Positions 15,260-53,684 of a stretch of DNA of 64,000 nucleotides are shown here, piece by piece. Position numbers and translations under genes: made by a program. The notes under the pieces are model-generated. The model worked only from the letters and a program-made list of their open reading frames with translations, made no database searches and was not told where the DNA came from. The DNA is from a virus (lineage: Duplodnaviria > Caudoviricetes): IMG/VR virus record IMGVR_UViG_3300011577_000001; one strand, written 5' to 3'. Each line of letters opens with the position of its first letter. Positions within the stretch are counted from its first letter, which is position 1.

Positions 15260-17278
15260 TTAGCGGTTCCAGGTCCCGGTGAAGGGAGAGCTGAACAGGC
15301 GCGAGCCTTGTTGCTGACCGCCACCGTAGTTGAAGAAGCCACCAACGTTGTTGGCAACCAGGTGGTTCAGGTCGTAGCCACCACGCTGAGTCAGGACGTT
15401 GTTATCGTCCAGGCCCTTGGCAGGACGCACGTTCAGACCGCAACGTACGATTGCTTCGGACAGCGCGTCCATGAAGGCGTTGTCGAACGACACGCGACGA
15501 GCGAAGCCCTTGACGTGGATTTCCGAGGCCAGGAGCTGGCGCAGGATTTCCTTGCGCTGAGCCAGGCGGATTTCCAGCGGGACCTGCACGTTGCGGTGGG
15601 TTTCTTCCCAGGCTTCGACCAGTTTCGGGTTGGTCTTGCCAGCCAGGTTGAGGATGGCCAGGTAGTCGATTTCACGCAGGTCACGACGATTGCCTTCGCG
15701 ATCGTAGTAGAAGCCCAGGTGGATGCGATCCTGATCGTCGTAGCAAACCGGCTTGGTCGCGTCGAACAGTTGCTGGAAGTGACCCATGGTCAGGTTGTTG
15801 GCCGCTTGCAGGATGGCCAGACGAGCGTTCTCGTCGCCGTTGGCGGCGGCGATGTAGGTCTGGTGAATCCAGGACAGCTCGCCAACCTCGGCGATGTCGA
15901 GGGTGAAGATCAGCTTCGGCGCGATCAGGGTGTTGATGAGCTGGCGCATTTCGTTGTCACCGAAGTCGGCGGAACGAGTCGGCAGTGCATCAGGCTTGGC
16001 GTTCGGGTCACCGGTCAGGTTGACTTCGTAGCCGACAGCACCCAGGTCTTTCAGATCGACGTCGGTAGCCTTGCCCTTGTTGGCGCGCCAGGTACCGGTG
16101 TACAGCGCGTTGCGGTTCAGACCGAAGGCGGTAGACAGGGTCAGCAGTTGCAGTTCCATGTTCACGGCGTCGGTCAGGGTGTCGACCGAGGTCATCACCA
16201 GACGCGGCTGGTACATCTGAGTCGCCATCATTTGCTGCTGGCCGAACATACCGAAGGCGTTCTGCTGCGGCTGGAAGCCCGCTTGTGCCGGTTGGTACAT
16301 CAGGTCAACGTACGCACCCACGCGGGTGAGCTGACGGGTTTGTTGCAGGCTGAACTGCGAGTCGGCTTGGGACTGCGCGGACATGGTGACGATGATGTCT
16401 TCACGTACCGGCATGCCAACCAGGTCTTCGCCGTGCTGACGAGTGAACTCGACACGCGCGCTCAGTTGGTCACCAGCGCCGACTTCGCCCAGGGTGAACG
16501 GCTCTTCGGTGCCGCCGAGCTGGTTGTCCATGATGGTGTAGCAGGCCTGGGTGCTGTTGTGCAGCAGGCGGTTGAAGCGGTTCTCGGTGCTGACTTCGGC
16601 TTCGGCCGGGATCACGATGCCACCGGCGTCGTGGACCTGAGCGTTCATGCCGTAGGTGTTGATGACGAACTGCTCCAGAACTTGCCAGTACGACTTGTTC
16701 AGGTAGATGTCACCCGGTACGATGTCGACTTCGACGGTGGTGCCGCCCAGGTTGACGCTGTTCGGGTCCAGCGGCGCACCGCTCGATTCGATCAGCATGC
16801 TGTAGACCGCGATGTGGTCTTGGCCCTGGAAGTTCTCGTGGTAGCAGACCAGGATGCTGGAGAAGGTCACCTTGGACTGGTTGTTGTCCAGTACCAGGAT
16901 GTTGAATTCCTTCTTCTGCTGTTCGGTCAGCACTTTGGCGGCGCGTTCTTTCAGACCGGTCTGGATGGTCTGCACGTCTTCGCCGGACATGTTACGAGGA
17001 ACCGGACGGCGGTGGTTGGCGTTGACGTCGAGGACCGAACGGCCACGGCTGCCGACGCGAGAGTTTTGCTGGTTCATCTGAGCACCTGCGTTGAAAGGTT
17101 GTTGCGGTTGAGCGTTACCGCCAGTCGGCTGTTGCTGACCACCGGCTGGTTGTTGTGCTTGCTGGGTCTGATCAGCACCCTGCGGATTGAGGCCTGCTTT
17201 CAGCATGGCTTCTGCCATTGCGCTGTTCGCAGGTTGGTTCGACTGGCTCTGGCCAGGTTGGTTACGTTTGACGGACAT
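15260..17278 (-). CDS. chmA: Chimallin, major phage nuclear shell protein (phiKZ gp54-like)
   Basis: Start moved to ATG 17278 (AAGGA SD). 672 aa with Q-rich N-tail, RRDLREIDYL and strongly biased codon usage; directly upstream of the gp55-like gene and preceded by an early promoter. Confidence 0.9.
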   Translation of the reverse strand: MSVKRNQPGQSQSNQPANSAMAEAMLKAGLNPQGADQTQQAQQPAGGQQQPTGGNAQPQQPFNAGAQMNQQNSRVGSRGRSVLDVNANHRRPVPRNMSGEDVQTIQTGLKERAAKVLTEQQKKEFNILVLDNNQSKVTFSSILVCYHENFQGQDHIAVYSMLIESSGAPLDPNSVNLGGTTVEVDIVPGDIYLNKSYWQVLEQFVINTYGMNAQVHDAGGIVIPAEAEVSTENRFNRLLHNSTQACYTIMDNQLGGTEEPFTLGEVGAGDQLSARVEFTRQHGEDLVGMPVREDIIVTMSAQSQADSQFSLQQTRQLTRVGAYVDLMYQPAQAGFQPQQNAFGMFGQQQMMATQMYQPRLVMTSVDTLTDAVNMELQLLTLSTAFGLNRNALYTGTWRANKGKATDVDLKDLGAVGYEVNLTGDPNAKPDALPTRSADFGDNEMRQLINTLIAPKLIFTLDIAEVGELSWIHQTYIAAANGDENARLAILQAANNLTMGHFQQLFDATKPVCYDDQDRIHLGFYYDREGNRRDLREIDYLAILNLAGKTNPKLVEAWEETHRNVQVPLEIRLAQRKEILRQLLASEIHVKGFARRVSFDNAFMDALSEAIVRCGLNVRPAKGLDDNNVLTQRGGYDLNHLVANNVGGFFNYGGGQQQGSRLFSSPFTGTWNR

Positions 17279-17358
17279 CTCGTGTTCCTTTTCATTGGGG
17301 TTGAGCACTACGACACACCATTTGCCTATGCTCTATTTATTTACATTGGGCATGGTGT

Positions 17359-25306: not shown

Positions 25307-25332
25307 AGTTTCTTACCTTTCTGAAGGTTAGT

Positions 25333-25362
25333 CACTTGGATAATATAGGTCTAAAACTTATT
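25333..25362 (-). promoter_or_regulatory. Early promoter
   Basis: Minus strand reads TTTTAGACC-TATATTAT-CCAAGTG. Confidence 0.75.
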
Positions 25363-25454
25363 GGGATGGCGTCTATGACGCTTTCTCTATAGGATCAGGG
25401 GTATGTGTCAATTTAAACAGTCTGTTGCTTAAAACGCAAAATAGACGGCATAAA

Positions 25455-25768
25455 AGGTAAATCCCCACAACGCACCCCGCGGACACGAGGAGCGCCGTGG
25501 GGCGCCTCACCAACAACACAAGGTCCGCTTAGGAGGACGGACATGAAGCGACACCCGGATCGCTTCCCTAAACACACTCAGTCAAGGTCGGCCGCCAGAG
25601 AACCGAGAGTGTTTAAGGCTGCGGTCAAGACGCTAAATCCCGTCGATGGTTAACGGGAGGGTCTACAACAACAACTTGTGGGATTCGCCGTCCCACCAGA
25701 CCTTTTCAGTTACTTAGCACTTGCGAGGCGCTAAGTACTTCCTTACTGCCCCTGTGATGGAAGGTCTA
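25455..25768. ncRNA. Putative structured ncRNA (hairpin series with CAA-rich linkers)
   Basis: No credible ORF. Consecutive hairpins CCCCAC/GTGGGG, AAACAC/GTGTTT, TCCCGT/ACGGGA, GTGGGA/TCCCAC and TACTTAGC/GCTAAGTA. Confidence 0.5.
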
Positions 25769-25769
25769 G

Positions 25770-26095
25770 GTACACAGGAGTCCTACCCTAACACGGGTTG
25801 GATTACACGCACAAGGCGACAAGCCGCGCTCGCAGCGGCCGCCGTGCAGGTGTCAAGCAGCTTTCGCCCTTTGGGCTGTCTACACTTACAGGATGACTCG
25901 GTTCTTAGCCAAGGTCCTGATTTGGGGTTCTGTCCTGAAAGTAGTAACAGTTCCTACGACACTGGGGTTTAATCCAGGAAAGCTCAACTCAAGAGTGAGT
26001 GGGGAAGCCGAAACCTCCCAGACAGTTAATGGCCCGACGGGGTGGGGTCCTGTCCAAGGTTAGGGTAGATTAGCTCCTAACCAAGACTTTCGATA
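25770..26095 (-). ncRNA. Putative ~325 nt multibranched ncRNA
   Basis: Long-range 10 bp helix CTACCCTAAC (25783-25792) with GTTAGGGTAG (26059-26068); minus-strand UUCG and GAAA loops with G-U pairs. Confidence 0.6.
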
Positions 26096-26105
26096 CACTC
26101 ACGTT

Positions 26106-26864: not shown

Positions 26865-26952
26865 TGGCAGTAGGTGAGAGATTCGAACTCTCGTGGCTGT
26901 TACACCAACACGCTTTCCAGGCGTGCCTTTTCGACCGCTCAAGCAACCTACT
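26865..26952 (-). tRNA. tRNA-Ser(GGA)
   Basis: Anticodon loop CTGGAAA, long variable arm, GCCA end. Confidence 0.92.
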
Positions 26953-26970
26953 GTGAAAGGTAAAGCAAAG

Positions 26971-27421
26971 TTCAATCAATACCCGGTGTGTGGTATCTTT
27001 TCGTTTACAGATCTGGTGGCCCAGCCAGGATTTCGGGTTGTACCTGGAATGCTACCTTGGAGGGTAGAGTTATACCTTTCGGCGTTTTTAACTATTGGGC
27101 CTTTCTTACCACACCACTGATTGAATCCCGCGAGGGAACTTCCAAACAGATAGACAAGATTCCTTTGTAACGCGTATTGTATTCGCTCTCTTTCAAACGA
27201 GTGGCCAGGGGAGCCTTCGGACCCTACTCCCACGTGGAACCCCGGTTGGTGGGGCTGCTTTAGAGCTTTTAGCGACTGGCCTTTCTACGTTACCGCTGTC
27301 TATCAAAATCACAAGCAGTAGATTTCACCGTACCGTCGGCTGTGATGTTACTTTCTACTTGCCTAGGCTTTCGCCTTGATTCCCTGCATCCAGACTCGCG
27401 TTACTGGATACTGCTTGTGAT
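26971..27421 (-). ncRNA. Three tandem closed structured domains (putative ncRNA or ncRNAs)
   Basis: Closing helices TTCAATCA/TGATTGAA (26971-27125), GATAGACA/TGTCTATC (27149-27304) and a perfect 13 bp ATCACAAGCAGTA/TACTGCTTGTGAT (27308-27421). Confidence 0.6.
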
Positions 27422-27463
27422 CTTTGTCAACCATCTTGTCGAGGACGACAACACAGTCGAACA

Positions 27464-27546: not shown

Positions 27547-27622
27547 TGGTAGCACCAAGTGGGCTCGAACCACCGACCTCACCCTTATCAGGGGTGCGCT
27601 CTACCAACTGAGCTATAGCGCT
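27547..27622 (-). tRNA. tRNA-Ile(GAT)
   Basis: 76 nt cloverleaf, anticodon loop CTGATAA, CCA end. Confidence 0.95.
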
Positions 27623-27629
27623 ATGAAAC

Positions 27630-28001
27630 TTAACCGCGACGGTTATAGTTGACGCGCTGGACTTCCAGCTCGACATACAATTCCATCGGGTATTGAGAAG
27701 GCAGTTCTACCGAGACACGCGCGATGGCAGTCTCAGGGTTGACGAATACCGCAAACGGAGCATTGGCGAAGGAGCCCAACACGCCTTGCATCTGGACACC
27801 ACGCTCGGTTTCGCTCTTGATCGGGCTGGTGATGTTGCAGGCAATGTCCACACCGTCAACGGTGGTGACACGCACTGCTTTCACCGACTCGATGGAGTCA
27901 GTACTGTCGAACTCTTCGGTCTGTGTAGCAATCAGACCAAACAGGTTGACTTGGCTAACCTTGAGCGGCAAACGAACGTGGTCAACAGGATACTTGTACA
28001 T
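27630..28001 (-). CDS. Beta-rich hypothetical protein, paralog of the C-terminal domain of the upstream Tad2-like fusion
   Basis: 123 aa; aligns by eye with residues ~90-211 of the upstream ORF. Confidence 0.7.
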   Translation of the reverse strand: MYKYPVDHVRLPLKVSQVNLFGLIATQTEEFDSTDSIESVKAVRVTTVDGVDIACNITSPIKSETERGVQMQGVLGSFANAPFAVFVNPETAIARVSVELPSQYPMELYVELEVQRVNYNRRG

Positions 28002-28010
28002 GACAGCCCC

Positions 28011-28646
28011 TTATTCAGAACGACGGTTGCGTTGGCCGTACTCGATGCGAAGAACCGCGAACAGCTCAACCGAATTCTCGGCAGCAGATGAACGCGTTGG
28101 CATGCAACCCCATTTCTGGGTGTCAACTTGGATGTTGACGTGTTGCTTACCGTTGAGGCGATCCGCAAAGGTCTTCAAGCGAGTCTCAGTACGGTGTCCC
28201 GGTACTTCGACGACGTTGCTCTTGACGACCAACCCATCAGCAGTCTCCAGGTGAACGACTTCCACCGAGAAGATAGCATCAGGACCCTCCAACACGGCGC
28301 CGGTTTCACCAGCCAACGTGAAGAGGTTTTGTTCAACGCCGTTCAAAGGAACGCGCACGTCAACCTTGGCAACGTAATCCTCAGCATCAAGGACTACCCA
28401 GTCGTCGGCAAGGATGTCGGACTGAGAAGCAACCCACGGGACAAAATCACCGTTGTGCGCTTTCAGACCCAGCCAAGGTCGCAGAGTCGGTGCAGGGTCC
28501 TTACGAACGTTGAGACCAACGGTGCGAGCACCCACGTCATAATGGCCAGAGCCAACCATGACGACCCACATGCCTTTACCGTTCCAGCCTTCGCGTGTGG
28601 CGCGAGAGCCATGCTTCAAAGCCGTAAGGGCTTGACCGAACTCCAT
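28011..28646 (-). CDS. tad2: Tad2/DUF2829-like cyclic-nucleotide sponge fused to an unknown C-terminal domain
   Basis: Start moved to ATG 28646 (AGGAG SD) because the longer ORF runs into tRNA-Ser. MEFGQAL...REGWNGKGMW...PWVASQSDILADDW is the DUF2829/Tad2 signature. Confidence 0.8.
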   Translation of the reverse strand: MEFGQALTALKHGSRATREGWNGKGMWVVMVGSGHYDVGARTVGLNVRKDPAPTLRPWLGLKAHNGDFVPWVASQSDILADDWVVLDAEDYVAKVDVRVPLNGVEQNLFTLAGETGAVLEGPDAIFSVEVVHLETADGLVVKSNVVEVPGHRTETRLKTFADRLNGKQHVNIQVDTQKWGCMPTRSSAAENSVELFAVLRIEYGQRNRRSE

Positions 28647-28667
28647 GTGAAGCTCCTGTTGTGAATG

Positions 28668-28753
28668 TGGCGGTGGGCGAAGGATTCGAACCTTCGGGGC
28701 CGCAACCCTCTCCCTTAGCAAGGGAGTGCGATAGACCGCTCTGCCAGCCCACC
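28668..28753 (-). tRNA. tRNA-Ser(GCT)
   Basis: Anticodon loop TTGCTAA, long variable arm, GCCA end. Confidence 0.93.
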
Positions 28754-28776: not shown

Positions 28777-28853
28777 TGGCTGGGATAGTTGGGCTCGAAC
28801 CAACGACCTGGTGATTAACAGTCACCCGCTACTACCAACTGAGCTATATCCCA
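28777..28853 (-). tRNA. tRNA-Asn(GTT)
   Basis: Anticodon loop CTGTTAA, GCCA end. Confidence 0.94.
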
Positions 28854-29356
28854 TTATAACGAATACCAAGAGCTACCCGACGAACCGTGTCTTTACCGAT
28901 TTCAAACTCCCGAGCAATTGCTCGATAGCTCATGGTACCGACCAGTTCAAGGATAGCCTTGACTGACTCTTCATCAAGCGCAGCATGTGGGCTGTCAAAC
29001 CCTTTCTTGCCTTCATACAAACCTAAGGCTTGCGCATGATCAATATTACCTTGATGCGTTACCCACTCCAAGTTATCCCACCGGTTATTTGTCTTATCCG
29101 TGTCCTTATGGTTCACGAAGGGAAGATTCAACGGGTTAGGGACAAAAGCCTTGGCCACTTGTACATGAGCCCTTAAACAGAACGACTTACCTTTCCTTCC
29201 TCCTATCTTGGAGGCGTGAGTAAGATAGCCATTATGGTTGGGCGTCAGTGCCAAATCTTGGAACGTGCGAATGCTAAACAGTGTCCCGAAATTGCCGATC
29301 ATGAAGAGATCAGGGTAGTCAGGACATTCCGTGAAGACTTCAAATTCATACGACAT
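28844..29356 (-). mobile_element. Free-standing HNH homing endonuclease in the tRNA cluster
   Basis: VNHKDTDKTNNRWDNLEWVT...N HNH motif plus C-terminal HTH; own early promoter at 29381-29410. Confidence 0.88.
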
Positions 29357-29428: not shown

Positions 29429-29505
29429 TGGCGCCTCCGAGGGAACTTGAACCGTCGACCCCCGGCGTGACAGGCCGGTGCTCTAACCAACTGAGCTACG
29501 GAAGC
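29429..29505 (-). tRNA. tRNA-Asp(GTC) with a disrupted T stem (possible pseudo-tRNA)
   Basis: Anticodon loop CTGTCAC and CCA end are normal, but T stem GACGG/TCCCT has two mismatches and two G-U pairs. Confidence 0.8.
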
Positions 29506-29699
29506 GAAAACGTCCTGAGGAAAATGGACTCTGCAATCACCCAGACTGTGCCTGTAGGTGCATCGCGTGTAGGCTCAAGGTTCATGTAGACAACCATGGG
29601 CCAAGAACAATCCTGAGCGTGTCGACCGACGTGTAGCACTCGGAAGCGCAACCCGCTAGGAGAGAGGTACTCTCGATCCTTCTCGACAAACTCTAACAT
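29496..29699 (-). CDS. Small DUF1653-like protein
   Basis: 67 aa with FRVLHVGRH, MVVY and VWV...F...F; GAGGA SD. Confidence 0.6.
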   Translation of the reverse strand: MLEFVEKDREYLSPSGLRFRVLHVGRHAQDCSWPMVVYMNLEPTRDAPTGTVWVIAESIFLRTFSLP

Positions 29700-29720
29700 T
29701 GTTCATTCCTCTAATTCGGC

Positions 29721-29950
29721 TCCGGCTTGCTTCCCACCGCTTCGGTGGTTCACTGTACAACTCACCTGTAAACCAGACGACCCGCCGGAGAGGTCTTTAA
29801 CTAACTACGTCAGCACACCTAAGGTTCCGAAGAAGGTAGGTACTTGATGTAGATCCACTGGAGTACTAGCTCTCGTCGACGTTGGCACTAACGAGATTGG
29901 GTGATCCTCCCGGCGGGGACATCCGCCGAGTTAATGCACAGTGAGCCGGA
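29721..29950. ncRNA. Putative ~230 nt structured ncRNA
   Basis: Closing pairing of TCCGGCT+TCACTGT with ACAGTGAGCCGGA; internal hairpins CTACGTCA/TGATGTAG, TCTCGT/ACGAGA and CGGCGG/CCGCCG. Confidence 0.6.
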
Positions 29951-29974
29951 TTTTCGTAACGCACAAAGGCAAAC

Positions 29975-30256
29975 GACACGGCATGGCAAAGGATCGTAAG
30001 GGTGGTCTCCCCGTAGTTCTCCCACGAGGTTAAGGGACCGCTGCGGCGCTATGCTAGATGCTTTTGTCCGCTGCGACAATCCAAGACCGTTGTTTGACAC
30101 GCCTCGCCTCATTGGGTTGGAATTCCCGAGACTTATTTTCCCTGACTGATGACGCTCTCAGCATCGACCGAGCGGGTTACTCCTTTCCAAGGGAGCACCT
30201 ATCTAAGTCTTACAAGGTAAAACCACCGTATCGCCAGCAAGGGTCGTCGCGGTGTT
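29975..30256. ncRNA. Putative ~280 nt structured ncRNA
   Basis: ORF-free, with nested pairings GACAC/GTGTT, GGTGGT/ACCACC and AGACTTA/TAAGTCT. Confidence 0.45.
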
Positions 30257-30261
30257 AAAAG

Positions 30262-30348
30262 TGGTGGTCGAAGGATGGAATTGAACCTCTAGCACAAGGC
30301 GGCGCGTTTACAGCGCGCTGACAGTAGCCATCTGTCTCTACAACGACC
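30262..30348 (-). tRNA. Atypical tRNA-Tyr(GTA)-like gene
   Basis: Anticodon arm GCGCG-CTGTAAA-CGCGC and ACCA end, but the acceptor has U-U mismatches, the D stem is 5 bp and the T stem is bulged. Confidence 0.65.
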
Positions 30349-30355
30349 GTGAAAC

Positions 30356-30486
30356 TGGTGCCCCGTTACTCTATTACGAGTGTCTGTTAGACTGACCCCG
30401 TGAGAGGGGAGTTTGGGTTTGACCGGCTCTACATTCCCACCCCGAAGGGTTCACAATGCGATCTCCGATGACCTCAGACCAGGACA
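30356..30486 (-). ncRNA. CCA-terminated non-tRNA stable-RNA candidate
   Basis: Acceptor-like stem GTCCTG/CGGGGC followed by ACCA, with CCC-TTCG-GGG and other hairpins; no D loop or TTCGA T loop. Confidence 0.6.
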
Positions 30487-30499
30487 TGAAACTAGAAGA

Positions 30500-30632
30500 T
30501 GGCCCCGCTACGTGGACTCGAACCACGGACCTCCCGCTGGCACGCGCATTCAAACGTCATCACTGCCGGAAGGGCTGCTAGCGACGTAACCGCATGTCTA
30601 ACGAGTGCTCTAACCAACTGAGCTATAGCCGG
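30500..30632 (-). ncRNA. tRNA-like RNA with a ~60 nt hairpin replacing the anticodon loop
   Basis: Canonical D arm (AGCTCAGTTGGTTAGAGCA), T arm (CGTGGTTCGAGTCCACG) and GCCA end. The anticodon stem continues through CATGCG/CGCGTG and ACGTCG/TGACGT. Confidence 0.75.
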
Positions 30633-30635
30633 GAT

Positions 30636-30872
30636 GTGAGAGAAGGCCGCTACCCCGATCTACGGGCCGTGATACTCTCGGGGACTCAGGCGAAAGGGAA
30701 CCAAAAGCCTAAGAACTGCGGTATGCAAGCGCAGTCGTCTATTACCCCAGAGTCGGGTCGCAATATCATTCGATGGTGTGTGGGGTCCGTCAAGTCTCCA
30801 CGTTCCCTCTCGGTGGCGAAACCAAGAGCGTGCTGGAACTTACCATTCAAACAAATCACGTCATTCTCTCAT
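30636..30872. ncRNA. Putative ~235 nt structured RNA at the upstream end of the tRNA cluster
   Basis: Closing helix GTGAGAGAA/TTCTCTCAT; internal ACTGCG/CGCAGT, AGGC/GCCT and GGGG/CCCC stems. Confidence 0.5.
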
Positions 30873-30950
30873 GATATCATTGAGCTATGTATTTTTTTAC
30901 TGCATTTGTAGGGACAAAAAAAAGAGGGCCCCGAAGAGCCCCGACTTTTA

Positions 30951-31483: not shown

Positions 31484-32101
31484 ATGAACCGGTTACAACA
31501 ATTGGTGGAGGAAGGAGAACTTTCCTATACCTACAGTCCTGAGGGCATAGACCTTCTGGATGCAGCAGGGGTTGAAGTACCCACCAAGGAGATCTTTGTT
31601 CTTCTGACTGATACCAAGACTCTCGTGAGTAAGGTCAGTCGGATGGTGACGGGTGATCCTTATAACCACGTTTCCTTAATGCTGTCCGATAACTTCGACG
31701 ACGGGATCTACACGTTCAGTCTGGGCAACGGGATCAATGGCATAAAAGGCGGGTTCATGGTGGAAGACCGTGCCAACCTTAAAGGCTCACGGTACTCCAT
31801 GTATCGCATGGCTGTCACACAGGCGGTATACGACAAGATCAAAGCGCGGGTGACAGACTACATCAATGGGGTGGAGAAAACCTCCTACAACCACCTAGGG
31901 TTGTTTAACGCGATCTTCAAGAAGAACATCTTCAAGTCAGAAGACGATCAGACATCCATCTGTTCGGAGTTCGTAGTCGAAGTCTTGAAGTTCTCCGGCG
32001 TAGAACTCTTTGCCAAAAGATTCTCCAGCTCTGTAAGGCCTTACGAGTTGATCAAGTCCAAGCTACTCAAGTTCCACAAACGCGGCGTCATAAAACCCTG
32101 A
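31484..32101 (+). CDS. Permuted papain-like NlpC/P60 (YiiX-like) enzyme
   Basis: YNHVSL (His) precedes SICSEFV (Cys), the permuted order; YN.LGL segment. Confidence 0.72.
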   Translation: MNRLQQLVEEGELSYTYSPEGIDLLDAAGVEVPTKEIFVLLTDTKTLVSKVSRMVTGDPYNHVSLMLSDNFDDGIYTFSLGNGINGIKGGFMVEDRANLKGSRYSMYRMAVTQAVYDKIKARVTDYINGVEKTSYNHLGLFNAIFKKNIFKSEDDQTSICSEFVVEVLKFSGVELFAKRFSSSVRPYELIKSKLLKFHKRGVIKP

Positions 32102-33208: not shown

Positions 33209-34174
33209 TTACAAGACCAGGAAGTCGTTGGTGGTCTGGTCTTTCTCGGTCACGATTGCTTTGGCCGAAGCACGGCCTTCGCGACGCTCCACGAAACCTT
33301 CCACCGTACGGTTGAGGGTGTCGTAAGACTGACCCAGGAACTGGGTCGAGATCACGTAGTGCAGCTCGCTGACACCTTCGACCGGGGTCTGGAAGAAACC
33401 AGCGCAGGAGTATTCCGGCACCGGAGTTTGCAGTTGCGGTTGATCGCGGTCGGCGTACAGGCTGGCGATGGCGATCGGGTCCAGGATTTCCTTGACCTTC
33501 TCGGCGTCGCTGTAGATGTCCAGCAGGGCCAGTTGAGCTTCGACCGAAGTGGACTTGTTGAAGCGCAGCCAGTGCAGTACGTCCATGGTGTCCAGCTCGG
33601 CGTTCTGGCGAGAGGCCAGGTAGCGCAGGCAGGTGATGGCGAAGTGCAGTTGACCGTCGATGGTCGAACGGGTGGTGCCCTCGCCACTGTGGCGGTAGAA
33701 GGCAACGACCGGAACCTTGATACCGTTGGAGATCGCCGACAGCGACTTCAAGGTGTTCAGGCTGTTCTGCGCAGTGATAGTGGATTCGGCGGAACCCGCG
33801 CTGACCACGACCACGGCTTTGCCGCGCTCCAGGAGTTCGCGGACGATCAGCGGACCGATCACCGAACCCGAGCCACCCGAGGCGGAGAACACGACGATGT
33901 TGAAATCTTCTGGTGGCTGAGCCAGCAGGATTTGCTTGATGCTGTCTGCGATGGCCTGGTGGTTTTCGCGACGGACCTTACCGGAACCGTCGGTGCCTTC
34001 CAAGACGAAGATCGCTTCGGACGGGATCGAAGAATCCAGGTTGGAACGGCTGGTGTCTACGAAGGAGACCAGCGGGGTGGCGAAACCTGCGACGTCTTTC
34101 TGACCGAGGTAACGCTTGGCGATGTTGTTACCCAGACCGCCTGCGCCGTAAATACGAACTTTGCCCTGAGACAT
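33209..34174 (-). CDS. phuZ: Phage tubulin PhuZ
   Basis: GAGGLGNNI, GSGKVR, tubulin signature SGGSGSVIGP, ELDTMD and a C-terminal hydrophobic tail. Confidence 0.95.
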   Translation of the reverse strand: MSQGKVRIYGAGGLGNNIAKRYLGQKDVAGFATPLVSFVDTSRSNLDSSIPSEAIFVLEGTDGSGKVRRENHQAIADSIKQILLAQPPEDFNIVVFSASGGSGSVIGPLIVRELLERGKAVVVVSAGSAESTITAQNSLNTLKSLSAISNGIKVPVVAFYRHSGEGTTRSTIDGQLHFAITCLRYLASRQNAELDTMDVLHWLRFNKSTSVEAQLALLDIYSDAEKVKEILDPIAIASLYADRDQPQLQTPVPEYSCAGFFQTPVEGVSELHYVISTQFLGQSYDTLNRTVEGFVERREGRASAKAIVTEKDQTTNDFLVL

Positions 34175-43951: not shown

Positions 43952-46162
43952 TTATGCAGCCCGAGGTGATCCCCATGGACTGGAAACTTGCGGAGCGTGA
44001 CGCTTCTGACCCCAAGAGATCCCCTTGGAGAAGAAGTCGTTTTGTTGCACCCGCGCTTGACGGTTGGCTTTCACCAAACGCTCTTCCGAGGCACGCTTGA
44101 TCAGGGCGTTCATGTTGTTCACTTCCTCGGTGTCGTCTTTGATACGTCCGCTCAAGAACCGCAGACGTGCTTCCAGACGAGCAATGGTGAACGTGTCTTG
44201 CGCTTCGCCGAGACGAGTGTAGAGTTCATCCAACTCTGCTCGGAATTCCTTCTGCGTTTGCCGTTCACGGATTTCCTGAGGCGTGAGCACACGAGAGTTA
44301 TCACTAACCGCCGACATGACCAAGTTCTCATCGATTCCGTACCAAGCCAAGTTGGTTCCCAATTGCAAGAACCAGTTAGCCAACAGCCACGCAATGACGG
44401 TGTCGTCGTGACCCGATGCTTCGTGGTCGATACGTCCTCGCTTGACCACCAACGCTCGAATTTCGTTGGAGAGCGCTTTGTCCCTGACGAGGTGACCACC
44501 TTTCTTCGCCGCGTTCTGCAAGACCGTCGAGTACAGGATGTTCCGAGATTCGGAGGTGGTGTTGAAACCGAAGTACTTCTTGGTGGAGTCCATGAAAGCT
44601 TCGGAACGAGTGCCAGGTTTCTGAATCTCTTTGAACAGCTCTTGACGTTCGGACGATTCCTCCACGATGCGGTTGAAGATCCGACGGTACGGGTCGATCC
44701 CGTGTTTCGGCAGAGTCAACAGCAGGGAGTCCACGATCATCTGGCCAGTAGACTTCTTCTCTGGTACGACAGTCATGTTCGGGTACTTGACCATCAGTTC
44801 TGCCAATGCGTTGGAGAAGCGGATCAAGTTGGTCTCGTTCACAGTGAACGCACCCACTACCGACATATCCTTGACAGACAGAATCACACCAGCGATGGCG
44901 TCTCGACCCACCGCTTCCGAGGTATCGAGCCCCAGGATGAAGTGGTCGGTGAGTTTCGCATGAGCCAACTCGCGTTCGTCCAAGTACCAACGAATGACGT
45001 ACAGCTCTTTCGTGATCTCGGTGTGCTTGATCTCGATAACACTGTCGCGGATCTTTTCGTTGAGTGCTGGCGTAAGCGGGGAACTCTGCGTACCCGATGT
45101 CCACACGTTGAAGAAGTCGCGGTCTGCCGCATCGCCAAAGGAACTGGCCTGAGACATTGCCTCGTACAGCCACTCGTCGGTGTAGCCCAATTGACGGTGG
45201 GAGAAGGTGGCATTGATGATGAGCTTACGTCCACCACAGTTGCGACGAACCATTTCCACCAACGCAGCACGGTCGACACAGTCGAAGAACAGCTCGGTCC
45301 AGGTAGCACCGCCGACGATCATGTCGTACATGAAGCGACCATCACGGTCGTCTTTCTTACCAGCCGTTGTAGTGAAGATGTTGCCGTACGGACGGCCGAA
45401 CTTCTTCGCTTCTTCACGAGCAGTGGTAGCAGCAGCCAGTGCAGCAGGCAGGGTAGTGCCGATGTGGCTGATGAACGGACCTTCGTCGATGTGTGCGATA
45501 GGTGCAGTGAGTCCACGACCCAGGTTGTTTGCTGCGGATTCAGAAGACTGAGCAACGCCAGTGGTGTAGAAGTTCTGGTGGTACTTACAAGTAACTTCGA
45601 ACTGGTTGTCGGAGTCTTCACGAGTAAGCGGGACGAGGTAAGCTGGGAGCAGGTCACGCAGCTTCTTGATACGCTCCACGTTCTTCTTACGGAGGGTATC
45701 GTCCTTTGTAATCATGTTGATGATGGAGTTACCAGCACCAATGAACAGCAGCCACAGCATGATACAGTCAGTAGACACAGACTTACCGGTCTGACGTGGC
45801 TGGATCAGCGCGATATCAATGCTGTTCAAGAAAGCCCACGTGGTTGCAATGTTACCACGGTTGGCTTTGTAGGGAATTGGGTTTGGACCTGCGACAGGTG
45901 GAATGCGCACTACTTCACGCAGGAAGTACCACATGTTCCAGCGACACTCAAGACCGATAGCGATCTTGGTGGCTTCGGACAGAATGGCGGAATGGGGGTC
46001 AACACCTTTGAGGTCTGGGTTGATCAGCGCTAACGGGAAGAATCGGTTCTTAACACCCATCTCCCCATAAAGGGACACCAGGCGTAGGAACGATTCATTC
46101 GACGTCTCGAAATCTGGACGAGCGGTAGCGAACCGTGTCCAGTCGTTGTTAAATAGAATCAT
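43952..46162 (-). CDS. terL: Terminase large subunit (phiKZ gp25-like)
   Basis: Walker A PRQTGKS, Walker B HIDEG, TTTAG, nuclease LGLDTS and HDDTVIA; start moved to 46162. Confidence 0.95.
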   Translation of the reverse strand: MILFNNDWTRFATARPDFETSNESFLRLVSLYGEMGVKNRFFPLALINPDLKGVDPHSAILSEATKIAIGLECRWNMWYFLREVVRIPPVAGPNPIPYKANRGNIATTWAFLNSIDIALIQPRQTGKSVSTDCIMLWLLFIGAGNSIINMITKDDTLRKKNVERIKKLRDLLPAYLVPLTREDSDNQFEVTCKYHQNFYTTGVAQSSESAANNLGRGLTAPIAHIDEGPFISHIGTTLPAALAAATTAREEAKKFGRPYGNIFTTTAGKKDDRDGRFMYDMIVGGATWTELFFDCVDRAALVEMVRRNCGGRKLIINATFSHRQLGYTDEWLYEAMSQASSFGDAADRDFFNVWTSGTQSSPLTPALNEKIRDSVIEIKHTEITKELYVIRWYLDERELAHAKLTDHFILGLDTSEAVGRDAIAGVILSVKDMSVVGAFTVNETNLIRFSNALAELMVKYPNMTVVPEKKSTGQMIVDSLLLTLPKHGIDPYRRIFNRIVEESSERQELFKEIQKPGTRSEAFMDSTKKYFGFNTTSESRNILYSTVLQNAAKKGGHLVRDKALSNEIRALVVKRGRIDHEASGHDDTVIAWLLANWFLQLGTNLAWYGIDENLVMSAVSDNSRVLTPQEIRERQTQKEFRAELDELYTRLGEAQDTFTIARLEARLRFLSGRIKDDTEEVNNMNALIKRASEERLVKANRQARVQQNDFFSKGISWGQKRHAPQVSSPWGSPRAA

Positions 46163-46238
46163 AGTGAAAGGTTCCGGTATTTGGGTCGAATACTCATAGA
46201 CTAGGGGCATAAAGCCCGGGAAATCCCGGGCCTCATGT

Positions 46239-51483: not shown

Positions 51484-51623
51484 GGATAGTATGATGTATT
51501 ACATCGGTTAAGGCAACTATACCATTCAAGTCAAAACGCCCCAGAAAGGACCATGGCCTCGAGGGAAACGAATCTTGCGTGGTTTACAGCGGTACTTTAG
51601 ATAGATCTATCACAGGAGCTGTT

Positions 51624-53684
51624 ATGATCACCATCAGAAACGCTGCTCCTCGCTCAATCCTGTTGGGTATCAAAGATGAGAGTGGTCGGGCCCCGGTTGT
51701 AGAGCCGGAACAGATTCCCTCTCACCTGGCACACGTGTTCACGTTCGCTGAGCGTGGCTCTCTGCTTCCCCAATTGGTTGTCGGGGACAGCCTTCTCACC
51801 GCCTACGGTGCGAAGACTTTCGACTACCGGTCCAAGTTCGCCACTCACCAGACTCCGCTGATCAACACCATCAATGGTGAAGCGAACAGCATGATGGTGC
51901 AGCGCTTGGTTCCTGACGACGCCACCACTGCGACCCTGGTCCTGTGGCTGGATTGCGTTGCCGACGAAATCCTGGACTACGAGCGTAACGCCGACCTGAG
52001 CTACAAGCTCGACGCGAACAGCGCCCGCATTCCGAAAGCCGACAAGATCGCGGGCAACCGCGTACGTTGGAAGGCCGAAGTTCTGCCTGCCGACACCGAC
52101 CTGGCCGAACTGACCAGCAAAGTCGGTGAAATCGTTGCAGACAAGGACGGCGCCCAGTCGACCATGTACCCGATCCATGCGTTCTCGATCTCGTCTCCGG
52201 GCGGTTTCGGTAACCTGGTGGGTCTGCGTCTGTCGGCCCCGACCATGCTGTCGTCCAACCCGATCGACAACACCACTGCTGAAGAGGCGAAAGCCTACCT
52301 GTACCGGATCGCCTTCGTTGAGCGTCCTGACCAGTTCAGCACCCCGGCGATCATCGAGACTCGCCAAGGCGAACAGTTCATCGACTTCGCCTACAAGGAA
52401 GGAGTGATCAACACCCGTACCGACAGCCTGGTGTCTGCAAACGACACTCTGCTGCAAGCGTGGAACGCTCCGGCGATCAACGGCATCCCGGCTACCGTCG
52501 GTGTGGTTGACCAGATGCACGTGTACCAGGACAACATCGAAACCCTGCTGGCTGTATTCCAGGGCACCGAAGCTGAACTGGGCCTGATCTCCGAAGACGA
52601 GGAGGACCTGCACCTCTTCAACTTCGTCGGTGGCACCACCCTGGAAGGCATCCCGTACTACACCTACGTAGTCGAGGGTCCGACCTCTGGTGGTCTGCTG
52701 ATGGCTGACTCCGCGACCCACTACTTCGCTGGTGGTTCTGACGGTACCATGACCAACGAAGTCTTCGACAAGTTGGTTGCTGCTCAAGTCTCCAACTACG
52801 GTAACGTAGCTGGCTTCGACTTCCTGGACACTGCGATCTACCCGCAGAGCTGCATCTATGACTCCGGTTTCACCCTGGAGACCAAGAAGAAGCTGCTGAC
52901 CGTCCTGGGTCGTCGTAAAGACATGTGGGTTGTGCTCTCCACTCAGGATGCTTCTGCTCGTCAGAACACCACGTCGGAAGAGTCCAGCATCGCGATCTCC
53001 CTGCGGACCGCGGCGCGCATGTACCCTGAGTCGGAAGTTTACGGTACGCCGGTTTGCCGCGCGATCGTGATCGGTCACTCGGGTTACCTGATCAACTCCA
53101 AGTGGACCAAGCTCACCCCGCTGACCATCGAGTTCGCGGCCAAGTGCGCTCGCTACATGGGTGCTGGTAACGGTATCTGGAAGTCGGCTCAGTCCTTCTC
53201 CATTTCCCCGGCCAACCAAGTCACCATGTTCCGCAACGTGAACGCTTCCTTCAAGAAGGCAGACGTACGTTCGCAGGACTGGGAAAACGGCCTGGTATGG
53301 GTACAGAACTACGACCGTCGTAGCCTGTTCTTCCCAGCGTTCCAAACCGTCTACGATGACGATTCCTCGATCCTGAACAGCTTCTTCAACATGGCCATCG
53401 CCGTGGAACTGGAAAAGATCGCAGACCGTGCTTGGCGCGATCTGACCGGCATCGACGGTCTGACCCCTGGTCAATTCATCCAACGCAGTAACCGTCTGAT
53501 CCAAGACGCTGTGAAGGGTCGTTTCGATGGTCGCGTTACCATCGAGGTTGACACCATCCTGACTGCTGCGGACACCCAGCGCGGCTATAGCTGGACCTGC
53601 AAGATCACCATGTATGGTAACAACATGATGACCGTGGGTACCTTCACTATCGTCGCCCGTCGTCAAGAGGATCTCGCACAATGA
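51624..53684 (+). CDS. Contractile tail sheath protein (phiKZ gp29-like)
   Basis: Start moved to ATG 51624 (AGGAG SD). Contains GIKDES, YDSGFTLETK, YPES..YGTPVCRA and TVYDDDSSILN. Confidence 0.9.
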   Translation: MITIRNAAPRSILLGIKDESGRAPVVEPEQIPSHLAHVFTFAERGSLLPQLVVGDSLLTAYGAKTFDYRSKFATHQTPLINTINGEANSMMVQRLVPDDATTATLVLWLDCVADEILDYERNADLSYKLDANSARIPKADKIAGNRVRWKAEVLPADTDLAELTSKVGEIVADKDGAQSTMYPIHAFSISSPGGFGNLVGLRLSAPTMLSSNPIDNTTAEEAKAYLYRIAFVERPDQFSTPAIIETRQGEQFIDFAYKEGVINTRTDSLVSANDTLLQAWNAPAINGIPATVGVVDQMHVYQDNIETLLAVFQGTEAELGLISEDEEDLHLFNFVGGTTLEGIPYYTYVVEGPTSGGLLMADSATHYFAGGSDGTMTNEVFDKLVAAQVSNYGNVAGFDFLDTAIYPQSCIYDSGFTLETKKKLLTVLGRRKDMWVVLSTQDASARQNTTSEESSIAISLRTAARMYPESEVYGTPVCRAIVIGHSGYLINSKWTKLTPLTIEFAAKCARYMGAGNGIWKSAQSFSISPANQVTMFRNVNASFKKADVRSQDWENGLVWVQNYDRRSLFFPAFQTVYDDDSSILNSFFNMAIAVELEKIADRAWRDLTGIDGLTPGQFIQRSNRLIQDAVKGRFDGRVTIEVDTILTAADTQRGYSWTCKITMYGNNMMTVGTFTIVARRQEDLAQ

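Follow-up and report, generated by a model that had tools for sequence, protein, structure and literature searches.

Tad2 sponges with solved structures, among them ModTad2 (9EIB, 8V3E), SPO1 Tad2 gp34.65 (8SME), HgmTad2/AcrIIA7 (8KBI) and SptTad2 (8WJD), are single-domain proteins of 88-104 aa (the AcrIIA7 chain 9kzr_A has 158 aa). Tad2 joined to a small domain that also occurs as a stand-alone protein has been described in Acb4-Tad2 of Pasteurella phage Pm86 and in Tad2-Sequestin (PF21825; 10.1101/2025.07.12.664507). In PhiKZ, another sponge, Tad1 (gp184), is a minor capsid protein with its N-terminus wedged in the capsid; the head protease releases its C-terminal part, which is injected (10.1101/2025.11.23.690004; PMC11297242; PMC13282480). 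According to a 2026 review (PMC13282480) and a 2025 transposon-mutagenesis preprint (10.1101/2025.11.23.690004), no anti-defence protein of jumbo phages other than this PhiKZ Tad1 has yet been described. Here we describe a two-gene locus in a 64,000-nt stretch of DNA from the IMG/VR virus record IMGVR_UViG_3300011577_000001, the whole of which is referred to as the window. Its first gene, gene A, joins a Tad2-like domain to a C-terminal domain of ~125 aa, here called X, and its second, gene B, encodes a free paralog of that domain. The fused copy is referred to as X_A and the gene B product as X_B.

Judged from sequence, the locus is a clear Tad2-type candidate anti-defence gene in an uncultured lineage of nucleus-forming phages. 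Fusions of Tad2 to extra domains are already known; new here are the X family, the tandem arrangement of a fused and a free copy, the restriction to one clade and the contrast in evolutionary rate within a single gene. Like Acb4-Tad2 and Tad2-Sequestin, gene A joins Tad2 to a small domain that also stands alone, but Sequestin is alpha-helical whereas X is predicted to be all-beta, belongs to no Pfam family, and is found only with Tad2 and in one jumbo-phage clade. Like PhiKZ gp184, gene A is a predicted chimallivirus sponge joined to an extra non-sponge part, which in gene A has a capsid-protein-like predicted fold. The PhiKZ sponge, however, is Tad1 rather than Tad2, and its anchor sits at the N-terminus, where the head protease cuts it off. 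Both genes lie on the minus strand and fill exactly the interval 27630-28646 given for them in an earlier note on this DNA:

28646..28011, minus strand: gene A, 211 aa, with its ATG at 28646 and a TAA stop at 28013..28011
28386..28646, minus strand: gene A residues 1-87, Tad2-like (DUF2829) sponge domain, assigned by PF11195, PDB and structural matches
28011..28385, minus strand: X_A, gene A residues 88-211 plus stop, the fused beta-sandwich, with a divergent cassette core at about 28380-28080
28001..27630, minus strand: gene B, stand-alone X_B, 123 aa, with its ATG at 28001 and a TAA stop at 27632..27630

The N-terminal half of gene A was identified as Tad2 by several lines of evidence. Residues 1-85 matched Pfam PF11195 (Tad2-like) over positions 1-72 of the 73 in the model (E 1.9e-23; score 83.2 bits, gathering cut-off 25) and matched the solved Tad2 chains 8v3e and 9eib among PDB sequences (E 6e-16). 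The AlphaFold2 (AF2) model of gene A superposed on ModTad2 (9eib_A) with Z 9.9 over 74 residues at 46 % identity and on HgmTad2 (8kbi_A) with Z 9.7, in agreement with the Tad2/DUF2829 signature that the earlier note had read over residues 1 to ~87. The solved Tad2 sponges named above match gene A residues 1-87 in both sequence and predicted fold. Gene A differs from the solved Tad2 proteins in its extra 124-aa C-terminal beta-sandwich and in the free paralog next door.

The residues through which Tad2 holds glycocyclic ADP-ribose (gcADPR) are largely retained. HgmTad2 contacts gcADPR through 12 residues (W21, N22, G23, M76, A78, T82, V84, W87, L88, S90, T92 and D93; 10.1101/2023.11.15.567273), whose counterparts in the HMMER alignment of gene A are W21, N22, G23, L61, A63, D67, V69, W71, V72, S74, S76 and D77. 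Eight of the 12 are identical (W21, N22, G23, A63, V69, W71, S74 and D77), three are conservative replacements (L61, V72 and S76) and one is changed (D67 for T82), so that the gcADPR-contacting motifs GWNG and W-x-x-S-x-S/T-D are both kept. Features of the second site of HgmTad2 (the long insertion at residues 32-72, together with R31, S47, F70 and N85) were not found in gene A. Only the two conserved Tad2 blocks are aligned by HMMER, with 25 aa between them and a gap in the N85 column; this insertion, modelled at a low predicted local distance difference test score (pLDDT) of 54-58, is short, as in SPO1 Tad2. Because the insertion is short and the N85 position absent, a cyclic-di-GMP site of the HgmTad2 type is not expected in gene A. 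Homology and residue conservation together make it quite likely that the Tad2 half is a working sponge for Thoeris signals.

The earlier note had proposed that the remainder of gene A and the next open reading frame (ORF) are paralogous, quoting three pairs of motifs. The two aligned significantly both by BLASTP (E 6e-7 over 65 residues) and in a comparison of X_A and X_B profiles, each built from five homologues (hhalign, 93.7 % probability, E 1.9e-7, 110 columns). All three motif pairs, including a common C-terminal N-R-R tail, fall in register in the end-to-end alignment, and the two domains share a predicted fold. X_A and gene B are thus true paralogs, as proposed. The N-R-R tail is kept in both paralog types despite an overall identity of about 20 %, and residues D35, R121 and R122 are invariant across them, with T47 and D49 nearly so. 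The X domains are acidic (isoelectric point 4.8-5.8).

Neither X nor gene B matched any Pfam, PHROG or PADLOC family; at E up to 1, Pfam returned PF11195 alone in gene A and nothing in gene B, and neither Acb4 (PF13876) nor Sequestin was encountered. The X profile had no match among PDB sequences at E up to 10, including no solved sponge and no capsid protein. X is a very small family: when 1.84 billion representative proteins were searched exhaustively with its profile, only eight matched. Six were credible clusters, all from relatives of the window phage: four Tad2-X fusions of ~210 aa, one protein of 289 aa with an extra N-terminal stretch ahead of Tad2-X, and the stand-alone B. The other two were set aside as spurious: P0016 (1195 aa) had no domain-level match and P0017 (1743 aa) matched through six short repeats on profile positions 17-51, and the Pfam content of both is unrelated. 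Word-index searches recovered close relatives of X only; gene B had four close homologues at 83-90 % identity. Another contig of 235 kb encodes a Tad2 protein, P0020, whose X is remote (hhalign 82 %, E 1.1e-5) and without the N-R-R tail, and a scan of IMG/VR added only two further X loci. No third X copy was detected by hidden Markov model scanning of all six-frame ORFs of the window and the fetched loci. In the exhaustive profile search X stood fused to or next to Tad2 only and never with Acb4, Tad1, Acb2 or Sequestin; recurrence with several sponge families, a generic trait of viral sponges, was therefore not seen for X. These searches support X as a domain that matches no known family and occurs only fused or adjacent to Tad2.

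Structure prediction, which the earlier note had put forward as a check, gave the same fold and the same top structural neighbours for both copies. X_B was modelled by AF2 with pLDDT 82 and a predicted template modelling score of 0.73, and X_A, within full-length gene A, with pLDDT 82-91 over most blocks. Although modelled independently, the two are all-beta sandwiches with one short helix and the same order of secondary structure. Foldseek found no solved structure in the PDB at E up to 1e-3. In a structural search independent of Foldseek, the same four capsid chains ranked top for both models: the capsid of the Staphylococcus jumbo phage S6 (7x30_A, residues about 150-284; Z 8.2 for X_B and 8.1 for X_A, best superposition 111 residues at a root-mean-square deviation of 3.3), the PhiKZ capsid (8y6v_a, 249-469; Z 7.5 and 7.3), the phi-kp24 capsid (Z 6.8 and 6.7) and the P1 head (Z 6.7 and 5.7), where a Z under 8 lies in the range that the tool gives for a common arrangement or for typical best matches without a clear relative. 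The PhiKZ match coincides with the insertion (I) domain of the major capsid protein, residues 248-472, which forms I-domain dimers between capsomers (PMC11297242). The agreement of two independently made models, together with a match over almost the full length of the domain, raises the likeness above noise in our view, and with moderate confidence the predicted fold of X is capsid I-domain-like. The I domains of these jumbo-phage capsids (PhiKZ gp120 248-472, S6, phi-kp24 and P1) are the best matches of X_A and X_B over 93-119 of about 123 residues, but with Z of only 5.7-8.2 and no sequence similarity. Moreover, the capsid I domain is an insertion in the HK97 fold, whereas X is free or C-terminally fused.

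Among predicted viral structures (BFVD), both models matched unannotated proteins of 100-200 aa from the nucleus-forming phages Phabio, Psa21, Noxifer, PS119XW, PhiPA3 (gp366), PhiEaH1, pEt-SU, Eowyn and 201phi2-1 (Foldseek probability 1.0, TM-score 0.5-0.65); one look-alike is annotated as a virion structural protein. These look-alikes (among them Phabio A0A1Y0SZ72, Psa21 A0A481W6H9 and A0A481W544, PS119XW A0A5C1K869 and PhiPA3 gp366) have no significant sequence similarity to X, and, unlike X, none is fused to Tad2. PhiPA3 gp366 (HQ630627, L011 4242-4589, minus strand) lies among tRNA genes, as X does; hhalign of X against it returned a probability of 0.8 %. A faint V-x-I-P ... T-D-S likeness between the two is not statistically significant.

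The three parts of the locus differ strongly in evolutionary rate, given here as medians over all 15 pairs of the six lineages that carry gene A with gene B. Nonsynonymous (dN) and synonymous (dS) rates were 0.018 and 0.48 for Tad2 (dN/dS 0.04), 0.067 and 0.56 for X_B (dN/dS 0.11), and 0.37 and 1.50, the latter saturating, for X_A (dN/dS 0.21). All three parts are under purifying selection and therefore encode working proteins; that genes A and B are real is shown by the retention of the pair in six lineages at dN/dS of 0.04 to 0.21. The rate of change in X_A is about 20 times that of the Tad2 domain in the same gene. Gene B is 82-98 % conserved across the six lineages.

The divergence of X_A is sharply bounded. 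Between the window and the locus L015, nucleotide identity is 87-100 % across Tad2, drops to 52-70 % between about 28380 and 28080, and returns to 87-95 % over the last about 70 nt of gene A and through gene B. By module, the window and L015 share 98 % (Tad2), 61 % (X_A) and 96 % (X_B), whereas the window and L014 share 97 % in X_A and 85 % in X_B, so that the ranks of similarity disagree between modules. Because identity drops only across the core and these ranks disagree, X_A is a divergent, recombining cassette between conserved flanks. Such divergence would not be expected of a domain that binds an invariant small-molecule ligand; a variable protein partner or relaxed constraint would fit it. 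A diversity-generating retroelement was considered as the source of the variability and rejected, since the differences affect every codon position and run the length of the cassette; no reverse transcriptase was present among the large ORFs scanned, although the idea was not tested rigorously.

The relatives are metagenomic contigs of 231-244 kb, and in every one of them the gene occupies the same slot in a tRNA island, after tRNA-Ser(gct), a conserved landmark on its upstream side (seen ahead of Tad2-X in L001, L003, L007 and L013). Three architectures were found in this slot. Gene A followed by gene B occurs in the window and five other lineages, always with a 9-nt spacer (identical in L001, L014, L015, L016 and L018). 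Tad2 with an A-like X and no gene B occurs in L007, where tRNA-Ile follows directly, and in L010. Tad2 fused directly to a B-like X occurs in L003, L004 and L013. Proteins P0012, with an A-like X, and P0013, with a B-like X, are 71 % identical in Tad2 and 25 % identical in X; the A/B split therefore predates their lineages, with one or the other copy lost later. In these data no lineage lacks X altogether and X never occurs away from Tad2. Since single-X architectures exist, one X copy suffices and pairing with gene B is not obligatory.

Two side observations concern these relatives. A conserved 60-aa gene without a Pfam match follows gene B or the Tad2 fusion to B-like X in most of them (L001 6027-6209, L018 2530-2712, L013 3367-3549, L004 4879-5061) and is absent from the window, where tRNA-Ile comes right after gene B. 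On a contig of 1908 bp, the Tad2-X frame of P0019 (163 aa) is 91 % identical up to residue ~95 and then continues into unrelated sequence, either a frameshifted allele or an assembly error.

The suggestion of the earlier note that the free copy is a hetero-oligomer partner of the fused one was weakly supported. Complex prediction with an X_A profile and a gene B profile scored 0.45 against 0.00 for the best control. The mark for a complex is passed by 58 of 80 solved complexes, against 2 of 110 mismatched pairs; among those that pass, scores of 0.60 or under belong to only 7 of the solved complexes and to both mismatches. Agreement between the runs was at least 0 % of contacts, and the partner was modelled at pLDDT of at least 67. 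The models thus hint weakly at pairing of X_A with gene B and do not establish it, and the single-X relatives show that an obligatory partnership does not hold.

Our tentative reading, to which we give a little less than an even chance, is that the two genes make up a counter-defence cassette within the tRNA operon, in which X is a protein-interaction accessory of the Tad2 sponge and not a second small-molecule sponge. By homology, the Tad2 half would assemble as a tetramer and would sequester TIR-made Thoeris signals of the gcADPR type, so that the host effector would not be switched on. The X copies would pair with one another (A-A or A-B) or with another protein, and how the Tad2 core is assembled, located or delivered would be governed by this pairing. 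We prefer this accessory role because X is attached exclusively to Tad2, has a capsid-I-domain-like predicted fold, is acidic, and in gene A behaves as a cassette.

Several points weigh against it. The accessory role is a candidate drawn from sequence and models, and the three complex runs disagree with each other (0.00, 0.45 and 0.50). The capsid matches, at Z 6.7-8.2, are within the typical range of best matches, which leaves the fold assignment only moderate, and no capsid protein was among the profile matches in the 1.84 billion proteins or the PDB sequences. Fusion of Tad2 to other sponges (Acb4, Sequestin) is common, which favours a second sponge (10.1101/2025.07.12.664507). The Arg-Arg pair at the C-terminus and two Asp, all invariant, might just as well line a ligand site, and relaxed constraint on a passive spacer could explain why X_A diverges fast. 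Finally, all members of the family come from one phage clade and one locus, so that their tie to Tad2 may reflect shared history and not function.

The alternative that survives best, though we think it unlikely, is that X acts as a further, independent sponge for immune signals or as a module that binds them, which would make gene A two-pronged and gene B an extra free sponge. The logic of guilt by fusion, which starts from the frequent joining of Tad2 to other sponges, is what uncovered Sequestin (10.1101/2025.07.12.664507), and X, as Sequestin does, occurs both fused and stand-alone; polar residues are conserved across both paralog types (D35, R121 and R122, with T47 and D49), and Lockin shows that a mostly-beta sponge exists. 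X, however, is joined to Tad2 only, is acidic overall, has no sequence match to a solved sponge, and in gene A diverges as a protein about 20 times faster than the sponge domain beside it. No sponge and no Lockin entry was among the structural matches listed for the X models, a listing that does not exclude that family.

Less likely again is that X mimics the I domain as a capsid-association module, tethering the sponge, and with it gene B, to the virion for delivery at the next infection, as in PhiKZ Tad1. The jumbo-phage I domains that head the structural matches of both X models are in line with such a tether, as are the BFVD look-alikes, small proteins of nucleus-forming phages that include the annotated virion structural protein, and gp184/Tad1 sets the precedent of a sponge that is a minor capsid protein. 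Against this stand the modest Z scores without sequence similarity to capsid proteins, the position of the genes in a tRNA and accessory island rather than a structural module, and the hypervariability of X_A, which is not predicted by a partner as conserved as the capsid. The linkers between Tad2 and X (LDAEDY, LEAEDY, LSANDY, LATEDY) also lack a conserved S/A/G-x-E head-protease site; such a site was considered and rejected on reading the aligned linkers. A broader version, which we hold to be just as improbable, would make X a free-standing I-domain mimic for docking or pairing, with the conserved gene B and the hypervariable A copy loading the sponge onto or into the virion for co-injection, or masking it from host sensors of sponge proteins. 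If it were true, the diversification of the X_A cassette would record an arms race against a host protein, and the unannotated look-alikes in nucleus-forming phages would fall into the same, as yet unrecognised, class of module.

That X is little more than a passive scaffold, or an extension for solubility, born of a lineage-specific duplication, with gene B a dispensable remnant, would agree with the relatives that lack gene B or an A-type copy, the fast divergence of X_A and the limitation of the family to one clade, but is doubtful in view of the purifying selection on all three parts (omega 0.04 for Tad2, 0.21 for X_A and 0.11 for X_B), the 82-98 % conservation of gene B in six lineages behind a fixed 9-nt coupling spacer, the lack of any lineage with Tad2 without X, and the N-R-R tail kept in both paralog types at about 20 % identity.

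Whichever of these readings applies, the relatives amount to a natural experiment in which the same sponge in the same slot is found in three architectures (Tad2-A with B, Tad2-A alone and Tad2-B alone). If X is a module for delivery, assembly or shielding, the locus would reveal a way in which phages adjust the place, time and manner of a sponge's action; if X is itself a sponge, it would add a new sponge family.

The two genes are embedded in a same-strand cluster of eight tRNA genes (ARAGORN), and their translation signals and flanking tRNAs are as follows:

28653..28657, minus strand: Shine-Dalgarno AGGAG of gene A, 6 nt upstream of its ATG, read from the sequence
28007..28012, minus strand: Shine-Dalgarno-like AAGGGG of gene B, overlapping the gene A stop codon, read from the sequence
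28668..28753, minus strand: tRNA-Ser(gct), found by ARAGORN, 21 nt upstream of gene A
27547..27622, minus strand: tRNA-Ile(gat), found by ARAGORN and Rfam, 7 nt downstream of the gene B stop

The spacer from the gene A stop to the gene B ATG is only 9 nt long, and translation of the two genes is therefore probably coupled. A sequence scan found no sigma-70-like promoter or intrinsic terminator between genes A and B and the adjoining tRNAs, so both genes are probably carried on the tRNA transcript.

The source of the window can be assigned from its gene content to a nucleus-forming (chimallin/PhuZ) jumbo phage. Besides pieces of a multisubunit RNA polymerase beta subunit and a DNA polymerase, it encodes the following:

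15260-17308, minus strand: chimallin-type nuclear shell protein
33209-34174, minus strand: PhuZ tubulin
43952-46210, minus strand: large terminase
51579-53684, plus strand: tail sheath

The window represents an uncultured lineage: no phage in the collection of phage records searched has a chimallin more than about 30 % identical to the one encoded here. Against the 50,697 records of this collection, megablast of the locus recovered tRNA similarity only and no other nucleotide relative, and tblastn of X_A gave no match; no cultured relative is therefore available.

Several further features of the tRNA island were observed. Rfam at its gathering threshold reported tRNAs and nothing else between 24000 and 32000, listing seven against the eight of ARAGORN, with tRNA-Ser(gga) (26865-26952) absent from its list. 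Long gaps without credible ORFs separate tRNA genes at 25307-26105, 26953-27463 and 29700-30950. A 205-aa ORF (31484-32101, plus strand) adjoins the island; Pfam gave no match for it, and PHROG linked it weakly (E 1.2e-9) to an enoyl-CoA hydratase/carnitine racemase-like moron family. A 67-aa ORF (29496-29699, minus strand), also without a Pfam match, overlaps tRNA-Asp (29430-29506), and its protein is kept in the distant relative L013 (2105-2368); the island may thus hold one more small accessory gene. An HNH endonuclease ORF (28844-29356, minus strand; PHROG 59, PF13392) lies within the island as well, and the overlap of its 3' end with the first 10 nt of tRNA-Asn (28777-28853) suggests a homing-type insertion between tRNA genes.

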